From Macrostomum lignano (Eukaryota), in the NCBI GenBank assembly GCA_002269645.1, contig NIVC01002790.1, positions 76,217 through 140,216 of the forward strand: a stretch of DNA of 64,000 nt, given 5' to 3'. Made by a program: the position numbers and the translations under genes. The notes beneath the pieces were generated by a model, which saw only the letters and a program-made list of their open reading frames with translations, did not search any database and was not told the origin of the DNA. Each line of letters begins with the position of its first letter. The first letter of the stretch is position 1. Positions 35,216 to 64,000 of the stretch are shown here, one piece after another.

Positions 35216-41808
<6,593 letters not shown>

Positions 41809-48800: not shown

Positions 48801-50863
48801 GGACTGAACAGCCGTACGCAGCCTTCAGATGCGCCGAGCAATAGCTGCGGCTGAGCTGTCGGTTACACATCTGGCCCAATTTGGGCAGGTGTAATCAATT
48901 ATTATTTCTTATTATATTATTATTATAAGCTTTTAAAAAGACCAGTAAATGATACTTAGTGTTGTCTGGGGAAGAGAAGAAGTCGCTCGCCTTGGAATCG
49001 TTGCGCAAATCGCGCCCATGAAGAAAGTCTGAGCCGCTGTACCGGTACACCCTGTGTGAGCGTACCTACGATATAAGACTATAAGACCAGATCTACGAGG
49101 GGTGCGCAAAAAGTCTTGGCAACTGGCTCATAACTTTTTAAATAAACGTTTAAACGTAACCATTTTTTAATCTCATAAATATGACCATATTTTGCGTTTG
49201 TTCATAAATTTTCAGCTCATTGCATTGATTTTTTCGCTTCCTAGAGCATTTTGATTAACGTACAGTCTCGTTTTCAGCCTTCAAATGGAAAATATCACTG
49301 CTGATCAGTGGAGATTTTATGTTTTCATGCGATCGCAGCTCGGAGAAAACGCCACCAAAATTCATGCCGAGCTAGTCCAAGTTGTAGCAGATCAAGCCCC
49401 TTCGTACCGCACCGTGGCCCGTTGGATTGAGCTGGTCAGTGCTGGTCGACGCTCCATGACCGACAGCCCTCGTTCTGGGAGGCCAATGACATCCGTGACC
49501 GAGCAGAACATTGTTGCTGTGCGACAGCTGGTGGACGAAGATCGCAATATCACTGTTGCACTACTTAGCCAGACAATCGGCATTTCTGATGGCAGTGTCC
49601 GAACCATCTTGCATGACCATCTTGGCCTCCGCAAGGTCACGGCCCGTTGGGTACCTCATGCACTGACAGCAGAGCAGAAGCAGGAGAGGGTTCGATGCAG
49701 CCAAGAATTTCTGCGATGCTTCGGCGAAGGTGGCACTAAACGACTTACTGATGTCGTGACTGGTGATGAGAAGTGGTTCTACTACTTCCAAGTGCCTCAC
49801 AAGAACCAAAACAAGGTTTGGATTGGTTCCGATGAAGACCGTCCAACTGTTCTGCGCCCAGGGTTTCGCTCAAGGAAGCAGATGTTCGTCGTCTTTTTCA
49901 GCATCAACGGGCCAGAGACAGTTGTTATGGTGCCAAATGGACAGAACGTCAATGCCACGTTCTATACTGGCGAGGTTTTGCCTAAAGTCGTGGCTTCAGT
50001 CATGGAAAAGCAGCCAACCCGCCTCCAAAGTGGCAGAATTCACTTGCACCACGACAATGCCTCCAGCCACACTGCGGCCATGACAACGAGCTTTTTGGCC
50101 GATAACAAGCTTAAAGTGATACCGCACCCTCCGTACAGTCCTGATTTGGCACCCTGCGACTTCTGGGCATTCCCGAAGCTGACCGAACGCATGGCTGGAT
50201 GCCATTTTCAGCGGCCCCAAGACCTGGCTCGCCGCATTAATTCAGAGCTGAACACCATGCCAGCTTCAGAGTACCGCGCTGCCTTCGAGGCATGGATCCG
50301 CCGTCACCAGAAATGCATAGAACGTGGCGGAGATTACATTGAAGGACTTTAATAACGTTTTAAGATTTACTAACAATTTATCTGCAATTGGGAACCCAGT
50401 TGCCAAAACTTTTTGCGCACCCCTCGTAAAACACAAAATGCACCTCACTGTCGTGGAAACAACAGCCCCGATCTGCTGCCAAACACGCAGGTACGGCCGG
50501 AGCTACAGCCTAGAAATTCTGCTCAACACCTCCGTAGATGAGGCGGAGGACAGTGTCGAAGCGAAAATGGCCACCCTAATTGAGGCGGTCAGCAAGAAGT
50601 TCAAAGACACTAAAGTCGTTGAAGAGTTCCACGATCGGGTGCACTTAGCCATCCCTGTCGGCAGCGTCAGCCGGTTGTCCGTGGCACTCAGCTGGTTATT
50701 GGAGAATCGCAAGAGTCTGAATATCTACTATTTCTCGCTGCACCAGATGTCCATGGACCAGGTGTTCGAGCGTATGGTCAAGCACCACGACGCCACTATT
50801 CGTCAGCGAACGTCGATCTTTTCCAACGTGTCGCACACGTCCGACAATCAGTCGCTTGTATAG
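42816..50863 (+). CDS. ABCA: Full-size ABCA-family transporter (ABCA5/6/8-like), about 1,677 aa; exons 42816-42818 (ATG only, inferred), 43402-44893, 45016-47396, 47790-48574, 50491-50863
   Basis: Two TMD-ECD-NBD halves. NBD1 GHNGAGKTT / LSAGQ / LDEPTSGLDP / STQFMDEADTLADRK / CAGSSLFLK. NBD2 GPNGAGKTT / LSVGI / IDEATTGVDP / TTHSMEE. Splice phases are consistent (0,1,0,2). The start exon is inferred from ATG|GTAAGT. Confidence 0.9.
48607..48927 (+). mobile_element. tRNA-derived CORE-type SINE, copy 2 (in last ABCA intron)
   Basis: A box TAGCCTAGTG, B box GGTTCGATT, CORE-like GTGTCCTTGAGCAAGAC-TTAAC...CTGTAAAATGGG, ATT-rich tail. Aligns with 33068-33394. Confidence 0.88.
49096..50426 (+). mobile_element. 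Full-length mariner element, 1,331 bp, in last ABCA intron
   Basis: 31-bp TIRs CGAGGGGTGCGCAAAAAGT(C/T)TTGGCAACTGG with one mismatch. TA TSD at 49094-95 and 50427-28. Confidence 0.97.
49285..50352 (+). CDS. Mariner DD34D transposase, 355 aa, intact
   Basis: HTH region, WVPHAL, VTGDEKW, LHHDNA, PHPPYSPDLAPCDF with 34 residues between D2 and D3, C-terminal KCIERGGDYIE. Confidence 0.97.
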   Translation: MENITADQWRFYVFMRSQLGENATKIHAELVQVVADQAPSYRTVARWIELVSAGRRSMTDSPRSGRPMTSVTEQNIVAVRQLVDEDRNITVALLSQTIGISDGSVRTILHDHLGLRKVTARWVPHALTAEQKQERVRCSQEFLRCFGEGGTKRLTDVVTGDEKWFYYFQVPHKNQNKVWIGSDEDRPTVLRPGFRSRKQMFVVFFSINGPETVVMVPNGQNVNATFYTGEVLPKVVASVMEKQPTRLQSGRIHLHHDNASSHTAAMTTSFLADNKLKVIPHPPYSPDLAPCDFWAFPKLTERMAGCHFQRPQDLARRINSELNTMPASEYRAAFEAWIRRHQKCIERGGDYIEGL

Positions 50864-51721
50864 GGCAAAGAAGATCTGCTTTTACAACAAAAATGAAGCA
50901 GTTCAACTCAATAAACATTATTATATACGTTATTTGGACAACATTTTTCATTCAATTTATTCATTCAATACTTTCAAGTGTGTCGAAAATGTCACCCTTT
51001 TAATTTTTTTAAATTGGGAAGTAAAACAAACGCCAAGCTGACGGTTTGACGCAAACTTTTTATTTGATTTTTTATAAATAACGGTGATCCTTGCGATAAA
51101 TTTGACACTAACAGTAATTTTCGATCAGCAGATCAGCAGATCTTATTGGAGCTACTGAACAAAATTTATCAACTATTTGTTGACGACGTTGGTTGCATAC
51201 TACTAACTGCTTCATCCTAAAAGTCGAGGAACACCAGTAGTACTGTTTGGATTTCCCAATTAAAATTTGAGGAAAGTATACAAGAGACAAGTTTATTGGC
51301 GCAATCTGCATTTTGCCACTTAGCAAAATGGCAAATGGTTCGCTGGATCAATGGATTCTATGGAATCAATCTTATAGTCTATGGTAGAGGTTCTGATTCA
51401 TTTACAGTTAAGCTGAGAGAAGCATCGTCTTCAGGATGGTGTTTCAATATTTCTCTGCGAGCTGTGTTGTTCGACGCAAATAAGCATGCTTCTGCTCGAC
51501 ATGAAATCCATATTTTGTTGTATCAGCGGCTGGCTTCGCAAAGATCAGTTATTTCTTCTCTGGCAAAGGCAGACTAGTGGACCAATGGACGGGATTACCG
51601 GTTCCTGCTGGCGTTGGATGCAGCAGCTACGCTTTGGATCCGGAATTGGGACGTCAAAAATTTGCTTAAAGATCTTACAGGCTGAACAGGAGCAACCGTC
51701 TCTGCCTCTGACTGTCTAGGT

Positions 51722-53853
51722 CTGTCCTATGTCCATGTCTATGTCTATTTCTATGTCTATTGCTACGTCTTTGTTTGTCTATGTCTACTTCTAGTCTTTC
51801 TCTATGTCTATGTCTATGTCTGTGTCTATGTCAGTGTCTATGTATGTGTCTGTGTCTATGTCTGTCTATGTTTATGTCTGTGTCTATGTCAGTGTCTATG
51901 TATGTGTCTGTGTCTATGTCTGTCTATGTCTATGTCTATGTCAGTGTCTATGTATGTGTCTGTGTCTATGTCAGTGTCTATGTATGTGTCTATGTCTGTC
52001 TATGTCTATGTCTATGTCAGTGTCTATGTATGTGTCTATGTCTGTCTATGTCTATGTCTATGTCTGTGTCTATGTCAGTGTCTATGTATGTGTCTGTGTC
52101 TATGTCTGTCTATGTCTATGTCAATGTCAGTGTCTATGTATGTGTCTGTGTCTGTGTCTGTCTATGTCTATGTCTGTGTCTGTGTCTGTGTTTATGTCTA
52201 TGTCTGTGTCTGTGTCTGTGTCTGTGTCTGTGTCTATGTCTGTGTCTGTGTCTGTGTCTGTGTCTATGTCTGTGTCTATGTCTGTCTATGTCTATGTCTG
52301 TGTCTATGTCAGTGTCTATGTATGTGTCTGTGTCTATGTCTGTCTATGTCTATGTCAATGTCAGTGTCTATGTATGTGTCTGTGTCTGTGTCTGTCTATG
52401 TCTATGTCTGTGTCTGTGTCTGTGTTTATGTCTATGTCTGTGTCTGTGTCTGTGTCTGTGTCTGTGTCTATGTCTGTGTCTGTGTCTGTGTCTGTGTCTA
52501 TGTCTGTGTCTATGTCTGTCTATGTCTATGTCTGTGTCTATGTCAGTGTCTATGTATGTGTCTGTGTCTGTGTCTGTGTCTGTGTCTGTCTATGTCTATG
52601 TCTATGTCTGTGTCTGTGTCTGTGTCTGTGTCTGTGTCTGTCTATGTCTATGTCTATGTCTATGTCTACGTCTGTGTCTGTGTCTGTGTCTATGTCTATG
52701 TCTGTGTCTGTGTCTGTGTCTGTGTCTGTGTCTGTGTCTATGTCTGTGTCTGTGTCTGTGTCTGTGTCTATGTCTGTGTCTGTGTCTGTGTCTGTGTCTA
52801 TGTCTGTGTCTATGTCTGTCTATGTCTATGTCTGTGTCTATGTCAGTGTCTATGTATGTGTCTGTGTCTGTGTCTGTGTCTGTCTATGTCTATGTCTACG
52901 TCTGTGTCTGTGTCTGTGTCTATGTCAATGTCAGTGTCTATGTATGTGTCTGTGTCTGTGTCTGTCTATGTCTATGTCTATGTCTGTGTCTGTGTCTGTG
53001 TTTATGTCTATGTCTGTGTCTGTGTCTGTGTCTGTGTCTGTGTCTGTGTCTATGTCTGTGTCTGTGTCTGTGTCTGTGTCTATGTCTGTGTCTATGTCTG
53101 TCTATGTCTATGTCTGTGTCTATGTCAGTGTCTATGTATGTGTCTGTGTCTGTGTCTGTGTCTGTGTCTGTCTATGTCTATGTCTATGTCTGTGTCTGTG
53201 TCTGTGTCTGTGTCTGTGTCTGTCTATGTCTATGTCTATGTCTACGTCTGTGTCTGTGTCTGTGTCTATGTCTATGTCTGTGTCTGTGTCTGTGTCTGTG
53301 TCTGTCTATGTCTATGTCTATGTCTACGTCTGTGTCTGTGTCTCTGTCTATGTCTATGTCTGTGTCTGTGTCTGTGTCTGTGTCTGTGTCTGTGTCTGTG
53401 TCTGTGTCTGTGTCTGTGTCTGTCTATGTCTATGTCTATGTCTATGTCTACGTCTGTGTCTGTGTCTGTGTCTGTGTCTATGTCTGTGTCTATGTCTGTG
53501 TCTGTGTCTGTGTCTATGTCTGTGTCTGTGTCTGTGTCTATGTCTATGTCTGTGTCTGTGTCTGTGTCTGTGTCTGTCTATGTCTATGTCTATGTCTACG
53601 TCTGTGTCTGTGTCTGTGTCTATGTCTATGTCTGTGTCTGTGTCTGTGTCTGTGTCTGTGTCTGTGTCTGTGTCTGTGTCTGTGTCTGTCTATGTCTATG
53701 TCTACGTCTGTGTCTGTGTCTATGTCTACGTCTGTGTCTATGACTATGTCAGTGTCTATGTATGTGTCTGTGTCTGTGTCTATGTCTATGTCAGTGTCTA
53801 TGTATGTGTCTGTGTCTGTGTCTATGTCAGTGTCTATGTCTGTGTCTGTGTCT
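51722..53853. repeat. About 2.1 kb of hexamer-based simple satellite (TGTCTG/TGTCTA/TGTCAG)
   Basis: Seen directly. Source of the V/C/S/M/Y-rich ORFs at 51760-53888. Confidence 0.97.
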
Positions 53854-54528
53854 GCATCCAGCAGATAGCTGAGTCTCAACTAGCTTGAGCAAATTCTCAT
53901 TTCGCATGTCAAAAGCTGTACTATCGAGTGTTGAAGATGTCTGTGACATTTCTGCCCGGTAAATCGGGTGGGAATAAATTCGTGCTCGCAGGATCAACCA
54001 CGGAATTTGCAAAAAACTATATTTAGTATTGCTTTTGTCAGCCAGCTTGATAGTTCAGCCAACAAAGTTGAGAATTAACTGAGATATAGTCTTGACCATA
54101 GACATAGATATATAACGAAAATGGCAAGCAAAGTTGATAATTGCTTTTCTTTACTTGCAATGAGCCGATGTTAAAGCCTGATTTCTATTGGAGAGGTTGC
54201 TGCTGGAATCCTTCCTTGTGCTGATGTCTATGGCCGAACTTGGTTCCTTTTCATCAACTAGGCTGACTATGGCCATTAACGGGCACGATTGTCATGTCAT
54301 TGATTGCAAAGCCGGAGAACAGAATACTCTAGTCTGTATAGTCGTAGACCATGAAATAGGGTGCTGGTCTTTGGCAAAGTTAATGCTATAGGCGCATATT
54401 AGATAAATGGACATTTGCAATTTTTTCCCCAAGAGAAATGGAGAATGGGGTACTAAGGAGGCGTTTTCATTGATGGCGCGCATGGCGTAGCCAGTGGTCA
54501 AAAGAGTAGTTCATCTCTTAGCAGAATA

Positions 54529-56746
54529 TGATGTAACCGCCCTTGTCGCCTGTCCGCTCCGTAGAGAGACGAACGCATGGCTAGAGGGGCAATGACCGTA
54601 GGCTGCCTATGACCGGGCAATGACCTGACGGACCTCCAGCACCAGACTGTCCCGCCCACATGATTAGTAGCTTTGGTAGCGCTTCGTGACCAGAGGGCCA
54701 AGGACCCACATGGACCCCACCTGTAGCCAAGGTGCAATAGTTGGTCACTCGGTCATGGTATGACCGAGTGGCTGCCACCACTCTATGTGACCTGGCGCAC
54801 CTGGATCTTTCTACCAGACCTCTCGAGGCTAGAGCCCCGCCTGGATTGGTTACCAGGGGATTTAGGCTAACAGGGGAGACGCATGCAGCCGAGTACAGGG
54901 ACTCTGCTTGGGGCATGATCGGGAACTCTGGGCTCAATCCTGGAGGATTTCTCAGCAGGGGATCCTTTGTGGCTGTGAGCGAGGCTGGCTTGCGACTTTG
55001 ATTACTAAGAGTAGTATGAGGCGAACATGTACTGTCTACAGTTTAGATTGCTCAGGGCGAAGGGACGCGTTAGCATGGGGTTGCAACCTTTCCTACTGCC
55101 ATTCTGTGCCAAGACTCGCTAATCCCTCTACTGCACGCACACGCGGCCCCGCAGCACGCACTCACAGGCGGGCTTTGCACGGGGAGAGGCCATTAGCTTA
55201 CCCAAACTTCCTTATGCTTTGCCACCCCGGGAGAAAGGCTTAGCACGCCATGAGTGAAATGATGGTGAAAGATTGAATAATGATGAAGTTAGTTAATAGC
55301 TAATAATTAGGCCCTTAGGCAAATAAGCAGGCAATTAGGCGGCTTCACTATTGAGTAAAATACAGCAAAAGATACGGTATCACAATTGGCTCTGCTCTCT
55401 AATCAGACAATGGAAAATAGGCAAACCCCGGATAAGCAAAGGCAATTAGAGCACAAATTAGTAGCAGGAACTTACCGGCAGCTGCACAGAGAGAGAGAGA
55501 GGCGGAGTGACCGAGGGCGGCTGTAGGCTGCAGTCAGGCAGACGGTGAAGCGGCGATGCGCTGGAGCGACGAGGCGCTGATGTAGATCAGGCGATGCTGA
55601 TGATGCTGGGCGGTATCAGACCGCTGGCCGATAGGCGAGCTCACTTGGGGAGCTAAGGATAACTTGGCGGTAACAGACCGCGGACCGGCAGGGATTCGTC
55701 TTATAGACGAATGGGTCAGAGCTCAATCTGACAGCAAGTCCAAAGAAGGACGAGGAGAGGAACAGAGATAAACTCAGTTGAGTATTCTCATGCCGAAATC
55801 GCTTCCTTTTATAGACCTCACAGCCGCCTCCTCAAGGTCGTTACCATGGCTCCCTCTCTCTGATTGGCTGCCGGCAGAATGACGTCAGAATGAGTCATGA
55901 TGAGAAGCATGAGACCGGCATAGCAACATGAGAAATCGGGAAATTGCGCAATCCGGAGGTGGGGTGGGGGGATAATTGGCGCCGCGGGTGGTCGCGAAAG
56001 TGTTGCGCAAGCAAACATTGAGAACAATAGGGCTGGGGTCGAGAACAAAGGAATTGGAAATCGGGGATAATTGGGGAAAACTGAGAACAATGGAAAAGTA
56101 AACATTGGAGAAAAGGTGATAATTAGGTGCGAAAACGAGAACAAAAGAAAGAGAAAATCGGAGAAAATGTGATAATTGGTGGGGGTCGAGAGAACAAAAG
56201 AAGCAAAAACGAGAACAATAGAAGCGGAGGTGGGGTGGGTGTCACATGAGAAATTTGGGAAGGAGAACAATAGCGTGAGAAAAGGTTGCGCAAGAGAGGG
56301 GGATGAGTCATCGATGAGTCACCGAGGGGGAGAAGGGGTCACACGACTTGCGTCACCGTTTGGGAGTTTGAGAGGGGATGGGGAGACGGTGAGCACACAA
56401 CGTACTGTAAGTAGACACAGGGAAAGAGGGGACAGCGCAGGAAAAGAGTGCAGAGGGAGACAAAAAAAAGGAGGAGGTAGAGAAAGTACAGGAAGAATAG
56501 GGCGGGAACAGAAGAGATAGGGTAGAGGGGGAGGTACAGAAAGGGGTAGGGGCTCCGGAAAGGCAGGTGTGGCGGCAGGAGAGACGGGACCAAGGCAGCA
56601 GGAGGGGTGCAGCAGAGCGGGAGTCTCCAGGCCCGGTCGGAGACCTGGCCGAGTCTCGACAGCTCTGTGCAGAGGGTGCACGGGATAGGAGGCACTTTCG
56701 AAAAAGTTCCCATGCCCTATCCCGCGACCAGAGCGTGGTTACATCA
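54529..56746 (-). repeat. 3' LTR, 2,218 bp, with 10-bp inverted termini TGATGTAACC...GGTTACATCA
   Basis: TG...CA ends. The first about 480 bp match 63520-64000. The PPT abuts 56746. TATAAAAG on the - strand at 55806-55813. Confidence 0.88.
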
Positions 56747-56763
56747 CACCCCCACTGCCTTTT
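56747..56763 (-). other. Polypurine tract AAAAGGCAGTGGGGGTG
   Basis: Purine-rich run immediately 5' of the 3' LTR on the - strand. Confidence 0.75.
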
Positions 56764-58208
56764 GTGACGGAACTGGTTCCGTCATCATCACTGCCCAACA
56801 TGGAACCACACAGACGGGAGCGGGATCTCAACCGAACGTGAAATCACAGAATTAACAAACCGCGAGCGGGAATGGAAAAAGGCGATAAAATAGAGGGGAT
56901 AGCAATAAATTCACAACACGAGATACATAGGTTGGAGTGCAATACAGAATTTCAACTGTTGCTGTGGCTAAAGTGGGAGGGGGGAAACACAGACAGCGCA
57001 ATAGTAGGGAGAAAAATAGCGAATTGTCAACAATAAATTATCATAATTGGATAGAAGCGCAGCTGGGAAAGAGAGGAAACGGGGAAGGGTGAGGGAAGTG
57101 GGGAAAAAGAAGGGGGGGAAGGGTTGCTAGCACACAGCCAAGGGCAGAGCCTCGGGGAGAATGACGATTACACAGGGGAAAAAAAAAAGACTAATGCAGC
57201 GCAGTAAATTAATAAGCTAATTTCGCCGGGAGTTCAACCGCACGGAGGCCTAGCGTCCTTGAAGGCTCGGACCCCGCTTCAGCCAGTCAGAGGGCTTCGG
57301 GGCGATCGGTTGTAGGCTGGGAGGCGCCGCGCCGTGCGCTGGCCACTGTATAAAAGGCGCCACTGATAACGGGAGCCGGCTGCCTGCAACCTACACGGAG
57401 TCGCAGTTTCCAACCAAGGCACTCAGCGCGATTTTCCAAACTATACAACTACTCGGTAAGTCCCATCACCAACCTGATTTCCTTTCGCCTGTACGTTAAA
57501 CGAAATCTACCCACTCGTCATGCCTTTCATATTAAACTGAGCCAATTTCAGTAATAATATGTCTTTTCTTACGGTACTAAGAGTGAGAGGCCAACACAGA
57601 CTTATTTTTATGAATTTGATTGACGCACAACAAAGACTCGTATATTATTAATAAAAGGTGGCATATTAGAAAAACAAGTTTTTATTAGAAAAATAGTGAA
57701 ATACTATAAAAATAGTGGCACACACAGAAACACACACACACACACAGCCCTCATTCACGTCTCCGAAACCCTCATAAACTTAGTAGCCGAAAGAGTTTGA
57801 AAGAGGAATTAATCATTAATTTGACTGCCACCAGTTTGATGTACTATTATAAAAGAGAAAGGGGAACCTACCACCATCTTGGCGCATTACCAAAGAAAAG
57901 AAAAGGAGGATCAGCCACCATTTTGAGAGAGGTTGCTAGGGAAAACTGCCACCAATTGCCCTTCTACCAGAGGAGAGGAAGACGAAAAACTGCCATCACT
58001 TAGAGGTGTATCATTAAAAGAAGGCGGGGAAGAAGGCTACCACTACTTGATCACCTAGAGCTCAAGAGAAGGAGAGGGAATGAAGAAAGGAAGAAACCCC
58101 CAGGAAGGTCACTACCATCCGCCATAAAGTTAAAATCCCCATCTATCTACATCCTAATACCCGGCTAGTTCCCTACTTCTATTTCATCCCTTAAATTCTC
58201 ATTTTCAG

Positions 58209-58615
58209 GATTCCGGCCGCTAGTAGCCGAGCCCATCCTTGAAGAGGAGTCCGACTACGAAGCGCCCGAAGACAGCCATTCAGAGCCGGACGCCCCCCCT
58301 GATTCTGGGCCGGCTGCGCCATCTGGTGGCATAGGCGCCGCGGTTCCCGGGCCATGCGACCGCCGGGCCGCCAGCGAACCAGCGTCCGGGGCCGGTTGGC
58401 ATCCGGTACCACCGCCGTTGTCAGCCCGAGCGCACGCTCCGCCGCCGGTAGCCGCGGTGACGCCCGTGGCTGCCGCTCCACAGCCCTTGCCAACCCCTGT
58501 GGTGGAGACCGACGGCTCCTGGCATTTGGTCGTGCTGTCGACGGCCCTAATAGCCGGTCTCACAATGCACTGGCTACTGCTCTTGGAGCTATTTCTGCGG
58601 CTTCCCAACTGCTGA
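58209..58615 (+). CDS. Putative antisense accessory exon inside the LTR element: acidic/Pro-Ala-rich region plus C-terminal hydrophobic segment, about 135 aa
   Basis: Pyrimidine-rich acceptor ...ATTCTCATTTTCAG at 58208. Stop-free frame FRPLVAEPILEEESDYEAPEDS...WHLVVLSTALIAGLTMHWLLLLELFLRLPNC*. Upstream TATA (57349) and GTAAGT donor (57456). No unambiguous AUG. Confidence 0.45.
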
Positions 58616-59203
58616 TGCTGGTGGTTCTTAATGCTTACTTACTAATTCTGAACCATCTGTCCCCATAACTTGACTTTAATTACTTACCTGACTTTACATT
58701 GACTAAACCACTGGCCTACTCTAAACTAATTGCTGCCCCATTTGCCTGATAAACTTAATTACATTGAATGCCCCCCCTATTGCCTCATCGAAACCAATTA
58801 AAAGTTTCCCAAAATCGGACTTTCATAAAGTGTGAACAAACACACGAAATCAGACCTAAAGGTGCTAATTTCCTACGGTCCCAGACTTCCATTGTTCCCA
58901 GAAAATCTTAAACAGCGGGGCAGGACCTCCTGTGGAGCAGACCCATAGAAATTTTACTAGTTTCCAAGTTAATATTTACTGATAGGGAATTAACGCATAC
59001 TGTACGGGCCTAATTTTCGAGCTAAAATCTTAGATATTTAAACAACACCAACGAGCACGAGGTCACAACATAAATTCGAGTAATAGAGGGCATACGTAAA
59101 TACGCGAAAAGCGGTCTCCAACGGGGCAACACGAGCAAAATTTCGACACGCGAATCGGGGGGGGGGGAATTAAGCAATCACTGGCTAGCTACCGATCTGT
59201 TAC

Positions 59204-59763
59204 TCAGCGGGGGTCGAATGGGAGACTCACACCTAGCAAGTAAACCTTTTCTGTTCGATAGTCTATGATAGCATGCGTACTGGCTAGAAAAGCACTACCC
59301 AGGAGGGAAACTGCTGCTGAATTGCCAACGACCAGAAAGAGGATTCTCACCTCTTCTAGCCCAATAACTGCTGTGAGGGTGGCCTGGCCTAGCATCTCTA
59401 ATTCATTGCCCGTGTAGGACACGGCCTTCACACATGGGGGCTCCAGGGCCTCCACACTCTGTCCGGTAATTTTAGTAAAGTCTTTGACTGTTAGCAAAGA
59501 CAGCGCACTGCCCCCATCTACCAGGAGGCGGGTGGGAACATTCTCAATTGGCAACTCTACAACAATATCTCTCCCGCGTTGTCCTCCAGCTGGTCTTGGC
59601 TGATAGAAATCGGGTACCTTCTCAAATCTAAACTTCTTGCTGGGCGGACGTGGCAGGTTAAGCTGGGCCCTAGAGAGGGAACGGGGCTGAGTTCGGGCCG
59701 GGCCATTCAGCCCTCCACGGGTTTCCCGAACCCGGGGGCTCTTCAGGCGTGGAAGGAGGAGGC
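59204..59763 (-). CDS. Retroviral-type aspartic protease with atypical active site (LLVDGGSALS), ends in a stop with no RT following
   Basis: LLVDGGSALSLL...VSYTGNELEMLGQATL...FLVV...SLLGSAFL is the retropepsin fold pattern. The frame is open from about 59763, overlapping the gag end in +1. Confidence 0.8.
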
Positions 59764-61150
59764 ATCAGAGCTTGCGCGCGCAGCTGGGCGAGCCTCTCCT
59801 GCCTCTCCCTGGTAGCCTCGTCTAACATATCTCTGCCCCACTCCTCTAAATCTTGCCTATGGCGATCAGGTGGCGCACGAAGCTGCAATTGCTGCTGCTG
59901 CACACCCGGCGCCGGCGGCGTGGGCGCCTCCTGAATTGCAAGCGGCGGGGGCTGGGGTTGGCGCCAGTTCCTACTGCTATTAGAGCCGCCCTGCCCCTGC
60001 CTCCAGTTCCTGTTGGGAGTGGCGGGGCGAGGGGGCCTCATCTGCTGGGGCAGCTGGGCAACAGACTCTGCTGTCGCCTTCATAGTTTCATTGAGCTGCA
60101 CCAGCTGGTTGCGCAGATCTTTTTGCGTTTGCTCTAGCGCGCCCAACCTCTCTTGCATCTCTGATAGGCCGTCACCGTCCTCCTCCGTCTCGTCAGCTTC
60201 CTGGTTCACCATCCTGACCCACTTGCGAGGGGGCCTGGGTGGCTGCTGAGGTTGCAGACGGACTTCGGTGCGGGACTCAGACCTGGGCGGGCCACTACTG
60301 TCCCATTTCCCGGCTAAGTCTGCGGCTTCTAACAGGGCTTGCTGCTGTTCTAACACCTGCTCAATTGTCTGCCAGCGACGGCTCAACAGATCTTGTCTGA
60401 CCTGGCGGGGGAGCTTAGCGTGTTCCAAGTAGGTGTACACGATTTCTTGTTCTCTCTGCTCACCCTGAATCTGCGGAAACATGGCCGTTATCTGAGATCT
60501 TATCATAGCAGCAAAAGCACTATGTGATTGGCCGGGTTTCTGGCTCAGATTCTTCAGCTTATTTCTCTTAGCCAGATCAGTGTTGGCCTCGCCCAACTGC
60601 TCTCCTAATCTAGATACGAACTGCTCAAAGGGCAATTGCCCGTCCAATCCTAAGGCTAAGTTCTGAAATTCACCTGGGAGGTGCGAGATGAGCACCTGCT
60701 TCCTAGCCTGATCTCCTACAGTTCTCTCCGCGTCCAGCTTGTAGATCATTCTCTCTACCCATTGCACAAAACAGTGTTCGCCGGGAGAGAACTTTTCTAC
60801 GTAGATTTTCGGCCTCTGGGCGTCTTGGCCCATGTTTAGCTGGTTAAACGCATTGGCTATAGCGGCAACTAAGTCTCCTAGCTGCGGACTGCCTGAGGAG
60901 GATTCTGGGCTGCGTCCGGGGGAGCAGCGGCGGCTGCTGCGTCACCCTGATTGGGAGCGGGAGCTGCTACTCCTTCATCTGGTTCCTCAACTACTACTGC
61001 TTCTGGAGGCTGAGGGACCTGGTTACCAGCGGCTGCGGCCATTGCGGCTGCGGGGGCGGCAACTGCTGGGGTGTCAGCGGCCGAGGGTGGTTGACCAGGG
61101 GCGTCTGCGCACACAGCTTCTACGACCCTATCTCCACGCGCCCGTGACAT
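59670..61150 (-). CDS. Gag (Ala/Pro-rich N-terminus 61150-60878, frame change, capsid-like domain 60941-59670)
   Basis: Capsid-like LKNLSQKPGQSHSAFAAMIRSQITAMFP motif, coiled-coil and Pro/Gln-rich tail, no CCHC knuckle. ATG at 61150 follows a strong acceptor at 61166-61167. Confidence 0.8.
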
Positions 61151-63498
61151 GTGAATGCCGGATAGCTGGGGGAGTACCCACCACCGGGAAGGAAAAGAAA
61201 AGAAAACCGGGGCAACTACAGGTAAAGACCGAAAAGTTGATCCGAAACACACAAACACACTCACACACACACAAACACAGACAAAACCCACATACTTGCG
61301 GCGTCGAAGAAAACAAATTGAAAAACGGGTGGCTCCACATAATTCCATTTAGGCAGTCCTAACGGCTTCACTCGGCAAAGCACACTGACTCAAACTGCGG
61401 CTACCACTACCAGTTGTCTATGGTACATCCTGACAGGGAAAAATTGGCTATTCAGAGAGACTTGACCTTCATTTTGCGGCCATGCTAGGGAACCCAAATG
61501 CCGACCGTAAACGGACTTACGGCACCTGTACAAATTCTCCCCTAGGGTTGCGCGCCGGACCCCATTTCCTTAAGAAAGCTACTACGAAGAAGCGTTGGCG
61601 CCTGGACCCAAAAACCCAAGTGGCGGAGCAATCCCCATGGAGGTCCTCCCACTTTACTGCCCTTGCACAGCCGGAAAACCGTCGGAGTCCAGTGGGGCTT
61701 CCACCTCAGGACTACCAATCTTGTACACGCAGCTTCACAAAAGGCGGGAATCCAGCTCCCCTACGTCTAGCAGAATCCACAAAAACCAAGACCTCCCCTT
61801 CTGTTCAGAGCGAAGGCGCGCAGCGGGAGTCCAGACTAAACTGTCCCCGAAGTTTTCAGGTTAGGCGGATTACAAGCCTGAAACTCTCGCCCGCTTTCCT
61901 AGGATAAACAGACCTAAGTGAGTATCTTCCTGAAATGCTTGCCCCTCCGATACTCCACCTTTGCTGCAGCTCGAAATAGCATACTTGGGACCTTTATCTG
62001 ATGGCGGAGAAAGTCCTACAGTTGTCAGCCTCTCCACTTTACTGTACTTGAACGCCCGGTTCTACCAGGAGACAGCGGTACCTCCATCTAGGTTATTCCA
62101 AGTTGCCAGAGACGTCAACCCGTCTTATTGACCTTGCGGGGCACTGGGTGGCACTCTATGTACCGGGGCTTTACATTAGGGGACTGCATGCAACCCTGCG
62201 TCTAAGCGCTTAGTGGGCTGCAGTGGCCAGAGGGGAAAAGAGTTGCGCAATAGCGCCTTCCTGGGCCAGGCTGACAAGTCGGGCAGGAGCGCCGTTCTAC
62301 CGGGTCGGGCTGATTGGCACACCCACCTCCCCTATCAGACTGACAGCAGGGGGGAGGAATTACTAAAGGAGGAGAATGCAGCAGGAAACATTACGAGATC
62401 ACTGGGGGCCACCAGACTTCCAGTACACCATTCCAATACTCACTGAACTCCACTATCAATAGGATACTATGGGATCTACTATTTCCAGCCACTGCACCAG
62501 CCCAAATGCAACCAAAGCAGTTACTACCGGGTCTGCAATACAGTGGGGAGAGTCAGCAGACACGTTGGGATCGAATCCCAGCCATGAAGGCACCAGGGGT
62601 TACCGCAGAATTCAGGTCCGGGCTGATCGCAGGTATTCCATAGGAGGTGACACTTTTTTTTTAGCCCGAGATTTTTGAGTCACACTGATACCCTACAGAG
62701 ATACAATCACACCGCTATTCCCATTCCTGCGAGACTTTGGTATCCCCCAATGTTTCCAAGGCCATGACTACTGCTTCCCTTACTATGCATATATAGCGAG
62801 TTCCCCATAGCCCTTGATAGCTGTTCATTCTAATGGACAAACAAAACACGCTCCGGTCTCTACGCATTTCTAGGATTAACTGAGCGATCAGGGAGAGCGA
62901 CTGTTACACTCCCCGAGTAAAAGAAAGAGGTAGGACAAAGGAAAGAAATGCTTCGCTTCCAGCTTCCCTGTGCTTGCGTGATGAGGCTTCCGTACCTGGC
63001 TGGCTGTCCACCTCAACACTCACACAGTTCTGCTGTAGGCTAGGCGAGAGAAAGAAAGGGAGGGGAAATAAAGCATATTACCATGAAATAGAAAGTGAGT
63101 CCGGAAAATTCACTTTCGCAGTTCTTCACACACTCCGTTACCAGGTAGCTATTCTGATTGTAATCAAATCCGCTCGTCTACCACTTCACACTTTCTAGCG
63201 CTGAAACTGATCGGCTAAATTAATTTTAAATTGAATCAGGGGCTTTTGGCGAATGAATGAATTTGGAAATTTCGAATGAATTGAACGAATTCGCAGCCCG
63301 AAAAATTTGAAAAGTTACATTAATATTTTTGGATTTTGTTGCCTCACGCCATGGGAGAAGAGAATGACGATTGGCGATTTTACGATTGGTAGATTTAGAC
63401 ATGGCACTCTTTGCGCTTCGGCCACCATTCTGAGGATGCCACAGGTGCGCTTGTCACATCTAAACCACCAGTCCGAAACTCAGCGCTGTTTGCACCAG

Positions 63499-63516
63499 AT
63501 CCCACCGCTGCCACCA
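63499..63516 (-). other. Primer-binding site TGGTGGCAGCGGTGGGAT, complementary to the 3' end of tRNA-Leu
   Basis: 18 nt, 3 nt from the 5' LTR end. The complement ATCCCACCGCTGCCACCA matches the metazoan tRNA-Leu(AAG/TAG) 3' end as I recall it. Confidence 0.85.
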
Positions 63517-63519
63517 TTT

Positions 63520-64000
63520 TGATGTAACCGCCCTTGTCGCCTGTCCGCTCCGTAGAGAGACGAACGCATGGCTAGAGGGGCAATGACCGTAGGCTGCCTA
63601 TGACGGGCAATGACCTGACGGACCTCCAGCACCAGACTGTCCCGCCCACATGATTAGTAGCTTTGGTAGCGCTTCGTGACCAGAGGGCCAAGGACCCACA
63701 TGGACCCCACCTGTAGCCAAGGTGCAATAGTTGGTCACTCGGTCATGGTATGACCGAGTGGCTGCCACCACTCTATGTGACCTGGCGCACCTGGATCTTT
63801 CTACCAGACCTCTCGAGGCTAGAGCCCCGCCTGGATTGGTTACCAGGGGATTTAGGCTAACAGGGGAGACGCATGCAGCCGAGTACAGGACTCTGCTTGG
63901 GGCATGATCGGGAACTCTGGGCTCAATCCTGTGAGGATTTCTCAGCAGGGGATCCTTTGTGGCTGTGAGCGAGGCTGAGCTTGCGACTTTGATTACTAAG
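63520..64000 (-). repeat. 5' LTR (partial, U5 end)
   Basis: Identical to 54529-55009 except four 1-bp indels. Confidence 0.95.

Follow-up and report, generated by a model that had tools for sequence, protein, structure and literature searches.

The 64,000-nucleotide stretch of Macrostomum lignano DNA analysed here (the window) probably contains the first and last exons of a three-exon, protein-coding gene that lies antisense within a Gag-protease LTR element and has lost its middle exon, with the start codon, so that this copy probably has to rely on other copies for the protein. The element itself appears to be one half of a two-part retrotransposon, each half encoding an enzyme that is missing from the other. 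On balance we lean towards an obligately two-part (segmented) LTR retrotransposon, in which a Gag-RT-RNase H-integrase segment and a Gag-protease segment with two opposite-strand nested accessory genes have common LTRs, are maintained by co-packaging or trans-complementation, and occur as at least two co-diverged pairs, the antisense gene being an accessory factor. Considered by itself, the accessory role of that gene is likely. The features are as follows, in window coordinates unless a locus is named.

54529-56746, minus strand: 3' LTR (2,218 bp), 99% identical to the LTR copy starting at 63520 and to both LTRs of the Pol partner; contigs break at 56746
56747-56756, minus strand: putative polypurine tract adjoining the 3' LTR, read from sequence
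57349-57356, plus strand: TATA box of the putative antisense promoter, in 44 of 58 copies and in the Pol partner L117, and matched in position by a TATA-like motif in family B
57375-57455, plus strand: antisense exon 1, a non-coding leader with its start estimated from the TATA box and a GT donor at 57456 (its context unchanged in 45 of 58 copies)
57456-58208, plus strand: fused remnants of introns 1 and 2, with ~1.95 kb missing between ~57657 and 57735
58209-58615, plus strand: coding part of antisense exon 3, with a phase-1 acceptor, 134 full codons and a stop (junction contig, dN/dS, UniRef models)
58520-58597, plus strand: predicted C-terminal membrane segment of 26 codons, followed by 5 residues (hydropathy 2.02)
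58616-58820, plus strand: AT-rich 3' UTR with a polyadenylation-type hexamer at 58797; end approximate
59204-59764, minus strand: aspartic protease ORF in the -1 frame relative to gag, stopping right after the protease domain and aligning with other gypsy proteases
59670-61150, minus strand: gag, ~480 codons (dN/dS 0.10 between variants)
63499-63516, minus strand: primer-binding site common to families A and B, by sequence comparison
63520-64000, minus strand: 5' LTR, cut by the contig end (LTR comparison) and complete in the partner locus L137
L117:5173-9831, minus strand: Pol partner of family A, Gag-RT-RH-IN by Pfam, with LTRs common to family A
L126:467-4762, plus strand: Pol partner of family B, Gag-RT-RH-IN, with LTRs common to family B

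The element lies on the minus strand of the window and encodes gag and, in the -1 frame, a protease (sequence, ORFs and Pfam). Two LTRs with TG...CA ends, a primer-binding site (for what we take to be tRNA-Leu) and a polypurine tract are those of a Ty3/gypsy element, and the PR-RT-RH-IN order of that group is divided between two elements, with the protease here and RT-RH-IN (in gypsy order) in the partner. Pfam and ORF searches detect no RT, RNase H or integrase in this Gag-protease family (family A) or in its sister, family B. In the window copy the protease ORF matches Pfam gag-asp_proteas at E=0.023, which is below the cut-off, and one frameshift near 60900 splits the gag ORF. A slippery-type heptamer at the gag/protease overlap (59715-59730, minus strand) is consistent with -1 frameshifting, by which the protease would be made. 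An apparent intron, with donor, pyrimidine tract and acceptor read by eye, is located just upstream of the gag AUG (61167-61297, minus strand). A genome search yields at least 40 long DNA matches to the element and more than 50 loci by protein; the copy comparison used throughout comprises 57 fetched loci and the window copy (58 rows).

Several other observations concern the surroundings of the element. Tandem copies with a common LTR are present at L087, L104 and G000:C4958, and L146-L148 and about 50 matches are short dispersed fragments 76-84% identical to 58827-59638 (part of the protease and spacer), the rest of the element being absent. The window also contains a mariner-type transposase ORF of 365 codons (49255-50352, plus strand; Pfam DDE_3, Transposase_1 and HTH), a candidate last exon of an ABCA-like transporter (50321-50863, plus strand; weak match to Pfam R1_ABCA1, E=0.078), and long compound microsatellite arrays at 51686-53888 and 37500-38950, the latter partly inverted.

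The signals of the antisense gene that an earlier note had read from the window alone recur among the copies. The TATA box at 57349, the GT donor at 57456 and the pyrimidine-rich AG acceptor ending at 58208 are in place and conserved, the 135 open codons occupy 58208-58612 with a stop at 58613-58615, and the hexamer at 58797 is present. The exon 3 acceptor is recovered by pattern in 54 of the 58 copies, and as a diverged AG acceptor of the same phase in 3 more. Copies that miss the TATA box or the first donor are mostly those whose fetched stretch ends short of the site; L043 has lost its TATA box. A near-identical exon 1 donor is present in family B and in both Pol partners. Exon 1 contains no AUG and joins exon 3 in frame, as the earlier note had it, and exon 3 encodes an acidic patch, then a Pro/Ala-rich linker, then a hydrophobic C-terminus. 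As in the class of antisense ORFs called aORF-3R, the gene is antisense to gag between the coding region and the 3' LTR, and it is found in most copies and conserved like the other element proteins (exon 3 in 57 copies; exon 2 missing from deletion copies).

The exon lost from the window is found in the longer copies as a 245-nt antisense exon 2, which begins behind a strong acceptor, has its AUG at base 5 and ends in a phase-1 donor. It overlaps the 5' end of a sense ORF (ORF3) on the opposite strand, within the ~1.95 kb missing from the window copy. Each of its ends is located in 33 of the 58 copies, and the donor is GT in 31 of the 33; a GC donor, taken from L046, was rejected as a variant found in 2 of the 33. 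Diverged variants retain three different exon 2 GT donors while the sense ORF residues at these sites change. The junction between exons 2 and 3 is seen when the contigs of four runs (only guessed to be RNA, none recorded as such) are compared with window positions 56700-59300: in one contig of run X9, position 58208 is immediately preceded by 28 foreign letters, which match the end of exon 2 in 24 of 60 loci, and the junction 24-mer has 0 matches in the genome assembly. This support amounts to one contig in one of four runs, with a short side of 29 letters against a bridging rule of 31, and its orientation is taken from the GT-AG ends. The contigs of X1, X5 and X10 do not contain the joint, which is not evidence of absence. 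Six UniRef models (P0001-P0005, P0008) use the same exon 2-exon 3 junction, and P0006 and P0007 use other junctions; the exon 1-exon 2 junction is putative. The junctions proposed in the earlier note (57455>58209 and 58107>58209) are unconfirmed, being absent from the contigs of the four runs, and contigs cannot show absence.

Exons 2 and 3 together encode a product of 215 aa, which is full length in 11 of the 28 copies in which both exons were located. Proteins in the databases with 98% identity to the ORF carry the label Macrostomum lignano, and a homologue search with exon 3 returned only 7 proteins, all from this species; an Atlas search with exon 3 or ORF3 gave no usable match. UniRef lists the antisense protein under host gene models (P0001-P0010) with automatic names, e.g. 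US8A and GPS domain-containing protein. In a subfamily represented by L044, L045 and L048, intron 2 contains ~2.1 kb of extra sequence and exon 3 is 72% identical.

The dN/dS check proposed by the earlier note indicates purifying selection on exon 3. Among the six pairs formed by four variants, dN/dS is 0.20 (p=1.4e-6), 0.33, 0.34, 0.38, 0.42 and 0.57 (p=0.14), with p<0.01 in the other five and the pairs not being independent. The stop and the last residues do not vary, and dN among variants is 0.02-0.05 over the last 39 codons. The overlapping frame from AUG 58354, which the note had also raised, does not hold up: its AUG is absent from 2 of 5 variants, and neither shifted plus-strand frame is under selection. 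Frameshifting indels per kb per copy number 2.0 in exon 3, 1.7 in gag, 1.7 in the protease, 1.5 in ORF3, 7.3 in the intron and 9.6 in the 3' UTR, counted against one reference, so that shared polymorphisms inflate the non-coding rates. The earlier note had named frame disruptions scattered among copies as evidence against a gene. At face value these occur (24 of 57 copies have a frameshifting indel in exon 3), but gag is affected equally (36 of 51). Nearly all are losses of 1-2 bases, many of them in runs, and our reading, offered without proof, is that most of those in exon 3 are long-read or assembly errors.

Family B has the same layout. Its Gag is 43% and its protease 40% identical to those of family A, and its ORF3 homologue 26% identical (E=1e-5, pairwise). 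The antisense gene of family B, whose structure is known from DNA alone, comprises a TATA-like motif, the near-identical first donor, an 89-nt exon 2 with an AUG that overlies the 5' end of ORF3 as in family A, a phase-1 intron, and a 174-codon exon 3. Between two subfamilies this exon 3 has a dN/dS of 0.18 (p=3e-18), with 55, 35 and 102 changes at the three codon positions, most at the third. The splice sites of the cassette were located in 7 of 14 aligned loci, and several loci lack the cassette. A GT at L052:2699 was rejected as the exon 1 donor of family B, being upstream of the TATA-like motif and variable, as was a Pfam EBNA2_Core match to exon 3, which is below cut-off and in low-complexity sequence. 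At L131:5287-7950, a family B ORF3 fragment lies beside tyrosine-recombinase-like ORFs (identified by eye), downstream of another gypsy element.

The ~1.95 kb gap of the window copy is common to 14 of the 58 copies and removes both the AUG exon and the sense ORF3, reducing the element from about 11 kb and four genes to 9 kb. The deletion copies have 7 distinct left flanks and include 2 tandem copies, 2 flanks being unread; the long copies have 15 distinct flanks among the 19 read, a single flank having been covered for most copies. The 7 distinct flanks indicate that the deletion form has itself spread, and hence that the antisense gene and ORF3 are dispensable in cis. From its sequence, the window copy likely makes no full protein. 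ORF3 comprises about 449 codons (L079:1551-2897, minus strand; dN/dS 0.11), with invariant His-x-Gly and Tyr-Ala-Pro motifs. A word search with ORF3 found no homologues, and a full profile search found two credible, unnamed Logan representatives; its Logan relatives are P0011, P0013 and P0014, one full-length relative being 30% identical. A repeat-protein match to the ORF3 profile was rejected. Predicted folds have pLDDT values of 40 and 55; the pLDDT 55 model has a best Z of 7.5, to generic helical bundles, and no Foldseek match at E<=0.001, and ORF3 could be assigned to no known family or clear fold.

It is hardly credible that exon 3 is a chance open frame in GC-rich sequence or the shadow of a sense ORF. 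The region is indeed GC-rich with several overlapping open frames, and the sense frame with common third positions has a dN/dS of 0.29-0.33, similar to that of exon 3, yet it holds 1-4 stops. Conservation, the RNA junction and dN/dS together make the case against chance: the plus-strand GT-AG junction is found in a contig guessed to be RNA and is missing from the DNA assembly, and a second family has the same layout. A gene that is spliced, protein-coding and antisense in a pol-less LTR element, as the earlier note proposed, is thus upheld for the family. Whether a protein is made from the window copy, through a two-exon RNA starting at a CUG or from ATG 58080, is a separate question, and this we regard as very unlikely. 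Both joins are in frame and stop-free, and exon 3 is intact in most deletion copies; however, exon 1 is in frame automatically, both introns having the same phase here, and intactness is expected because the deletion copies are young. The CUG start proposed in the earlier note is superseded by the family AUG in the deleted exon, and of its ATG 58080 alternative the in-frame join to exon 3 stands but the start model does not, the donor at 58108 being GT in only 3 of 58 matches.

The antisense protein is predicted to be tail-anchored, as the earlier note suggested. A Kyte-Doolittle scan of exon 3 (19-residue window) shows a single hydrophobic segment in the last ~30 residues. The N-terminus of the protein is Arg-rich by inspection, with no signal peptide, and exon 3 has no Pfam match at E<=0.1, hence no TRP28 (PF04195). 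The family B product (198 aa) is 21-24% identical in a poor alignment and lacks a membrane segment (hydropathy under 1.0), and for this reason the predicted anchor is not a conserved feature between the families; by inspection this product, too, contains an Arg-rich stretch together with an acidic patch and a helix-like C-terminal end.

The gag search also identified a 1553-codon ORF that begins with the Gag start of family A and contains Pfam RT, RNase H and integrase domains. This partner and the window element are 99% identical in the LTR, 97-98% in the 5' leader, and 98% in the 3' region through antisense exon 1 (to 57577). Each Gag-protease family has its own Pol partner with common LTRs, leader and antisense exon 1. 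By inspection the Gag of the partner ORF leads directly to the linker normally found after the protease. A protease profile (E<=10) detects nothing in 9 of 10 partner-A loci (the tenth unfetched; two covered over their full length) or in 2 of 2 partner-B loci; in other gypsy loci the same profile recovers held-out proteases at 1e-13 to 1e-34. An autonomous Pol partner was therefore rejected. An RT search gives 10 matches at 97-100% and 2 at 73%, then none above 51%, among 150 scored of 4124 candidates; given this gap, no complete element with the same RT is seen among those scored. The five partner flanks that were read are all distinct. Neither the Gag of family A nor that of the partner has a zinc knuckle by inspection.

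Two observations concern the partners themselves. In L117:4860-6100 (plus strand) the antisense promoter and exon 1 point into integrase, over an open antisense frame of 301 codons; in this region one candidate scan found no strong acceptor. In both family-B partners (L138:7413-8998 and L140:13-1112) the Gag start is in a different frame from the remainder of the ORF, the break falling at the same place in each, which may reflect a shared mutation, an error or a programmed shift.

How the two halves relate admits a different reading, which we consider rather unlikely: the antisense gene is real, but the Gag-protease family is a one-way parasite like wheat Sabrina/WHAM, and the Pol family needs no protease of its own or borrows one from an unrelated gypsy element. 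Many complete gypsy families with proteases are present in the genome, and Gag-protease copies far outnumber the partners in a parasite-like manner (about 57 versus 10 loci). On the other hand, both partners lack a protease, each has the LTR, leader and Gag start of its own Gag-protease family, and the pairs co-diverge (A versus B: RT 73%, Gag 43%, protease 40%). An improbable reading concerns the antisense unit, which might matter mainly as an RNA or an act of transcription that tunes ORF3 and genomic RNA through interference or double-stranded RNA, with the protein in a secondary role. The Pol partners retain the promoter and exon 1 without exon 2 or 3, the layout is conserved between families and the protein sequence is not, and antisense regulatory RNA has been discussed for other LTR elements (PMC7264820). 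Codon-level purifying selection and a fixed stop in exon 3 of both families argue against it, as does splicing that takes out most of the ORF3 overlap. An RNA role and the preferred reading, a protein-coding accessory gene in a two-part element, are not mutually exclusive.

In the two-part element, the halves would co-assemble in shared particles, the Gag-protease half would cut the polyprotein of the partner in trans, and the partner would copy and integrate both RNAs. A tentative proposal, whose details may well be wrong, is that the predicted antisense protein acts as a tail-anchored adaptor, its Arg-rich N-terminus binding element RNA or Gag and its C-terminal helix holding the particle at an internal membrane. 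It would work in trans, because copies without the gene still spread, and the absence of a zinc knuckle from either Gag leaves room for an Arg-rich helper. The natural deletion copies thus point to an antisense gene acting in trans, in a species with RNAi and transgenesis. The gene also explains a set of UniRef host 'genes' with automatic names.

The catalogue published for Macrostomum lignano starts from RT (PMC12801592) and as described would miss the Gag-protease half; more generally, if the pairing is obligate, catalogues built on RT would overlook one of the halves and list the other as autonomous. Antisense or non-autonomous elements are not mentioned, by term, in the main text of that study or in one supplement, and its other four supplements, an earlier classification or Repbase may list the Pol partners. 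The parts of PMC13524379 and PMC2410132 consulted contain nothing specific on these elements, and in the mostly open-access literature neither this family nor a protease-less partner was found described. Antisense accessory genes and Gag-protease elements are already known from plants, and what is apparently absent from this literature is a protease-less partner with mutual dependence.

Antisense ORFs between pol and the 3' LTR with their own promoters are described for maize Grande (gene23), rice RIRE2, Retand (TRP28 ORFs) and fungal Boty (PMC7264820, PMC11963269). Like these, the gene described here is antisense to gag, lies in the 3' internal region and is conserved across copies; its own internal promoter is putative. 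It differs from them in having three exons, in being nested over a second sense ORF, in its C-terminal hydrophobic segment, in its restriction to the Pol-less half and in its animal host, thus providing an animal example of antisense accessory ORFs; unlike the Retand proteins, the Macrostomum protein has neither TRP28 (PF04195) nor any other Pfam domain.

HTLV-1 HBZ, a spliced antisense gene with a regulatory role that starts in the 3' LTR, differs from the antisense gene here in that starting point. CERV, from the C. elegans LTR element Cer1, is likewise an accessory gene that is spliced and has a regulatory role, but it is sense and nuclear (PMC10309623). The likeness to small membrane proteins drawn in the earlier note does not extend to topology. 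sORF2/FAST-like proteins of the MDG1 group have a central membrane segment, a short N-terminal ectodomain of 10-50 aa, a polybasic tail and often a myristoylation motif (10.1101/2025.03.14.642691). The antisense protein is, like them, small and accessory, has a single hydrophobic segment and belongs to a gypsy element without env, but it has ~185 residues before a C-terminal segment, a 5-residue tail and no N-terminal glycine (residue 2 is Ser in P0002 and P0008; some sORF2s, by the same account, also lack the motif).

TR-GAG elements are under 4 kb with one Gag ORF (PMC4350172, PMC13570524); the Macrostomum element is like them in having Gag, in lacking RT or integrase and in being still mobile, and unlike them in its greater size and its four genes. 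The wheat elements RLG_Sabrina_SA and RLG_WHAM are semi-autonomous Gag-protease elements described as forming a cooperative complex with the partner RLG_Wilma (PMC9744471). The Macrostomum element is semi-autonomous in the same sense (Gag and protease under selection, no RT or integrase, mobile), and on that description also shares high copy number, co-evolution with a partner, a common primer-binding site and extra short genes. Wilma, as characterised there, is complete and has almost no sequence in common with its dependants, whereas here the partner has no detectable protease and LTRs 99% identical, so that dependence appears mutual. If the pairing is obligate, the genome of an LTR retrotransposon has been split in two at the protease boundary, like those of multipartite viruses, for long enough that two pairs have diverged.
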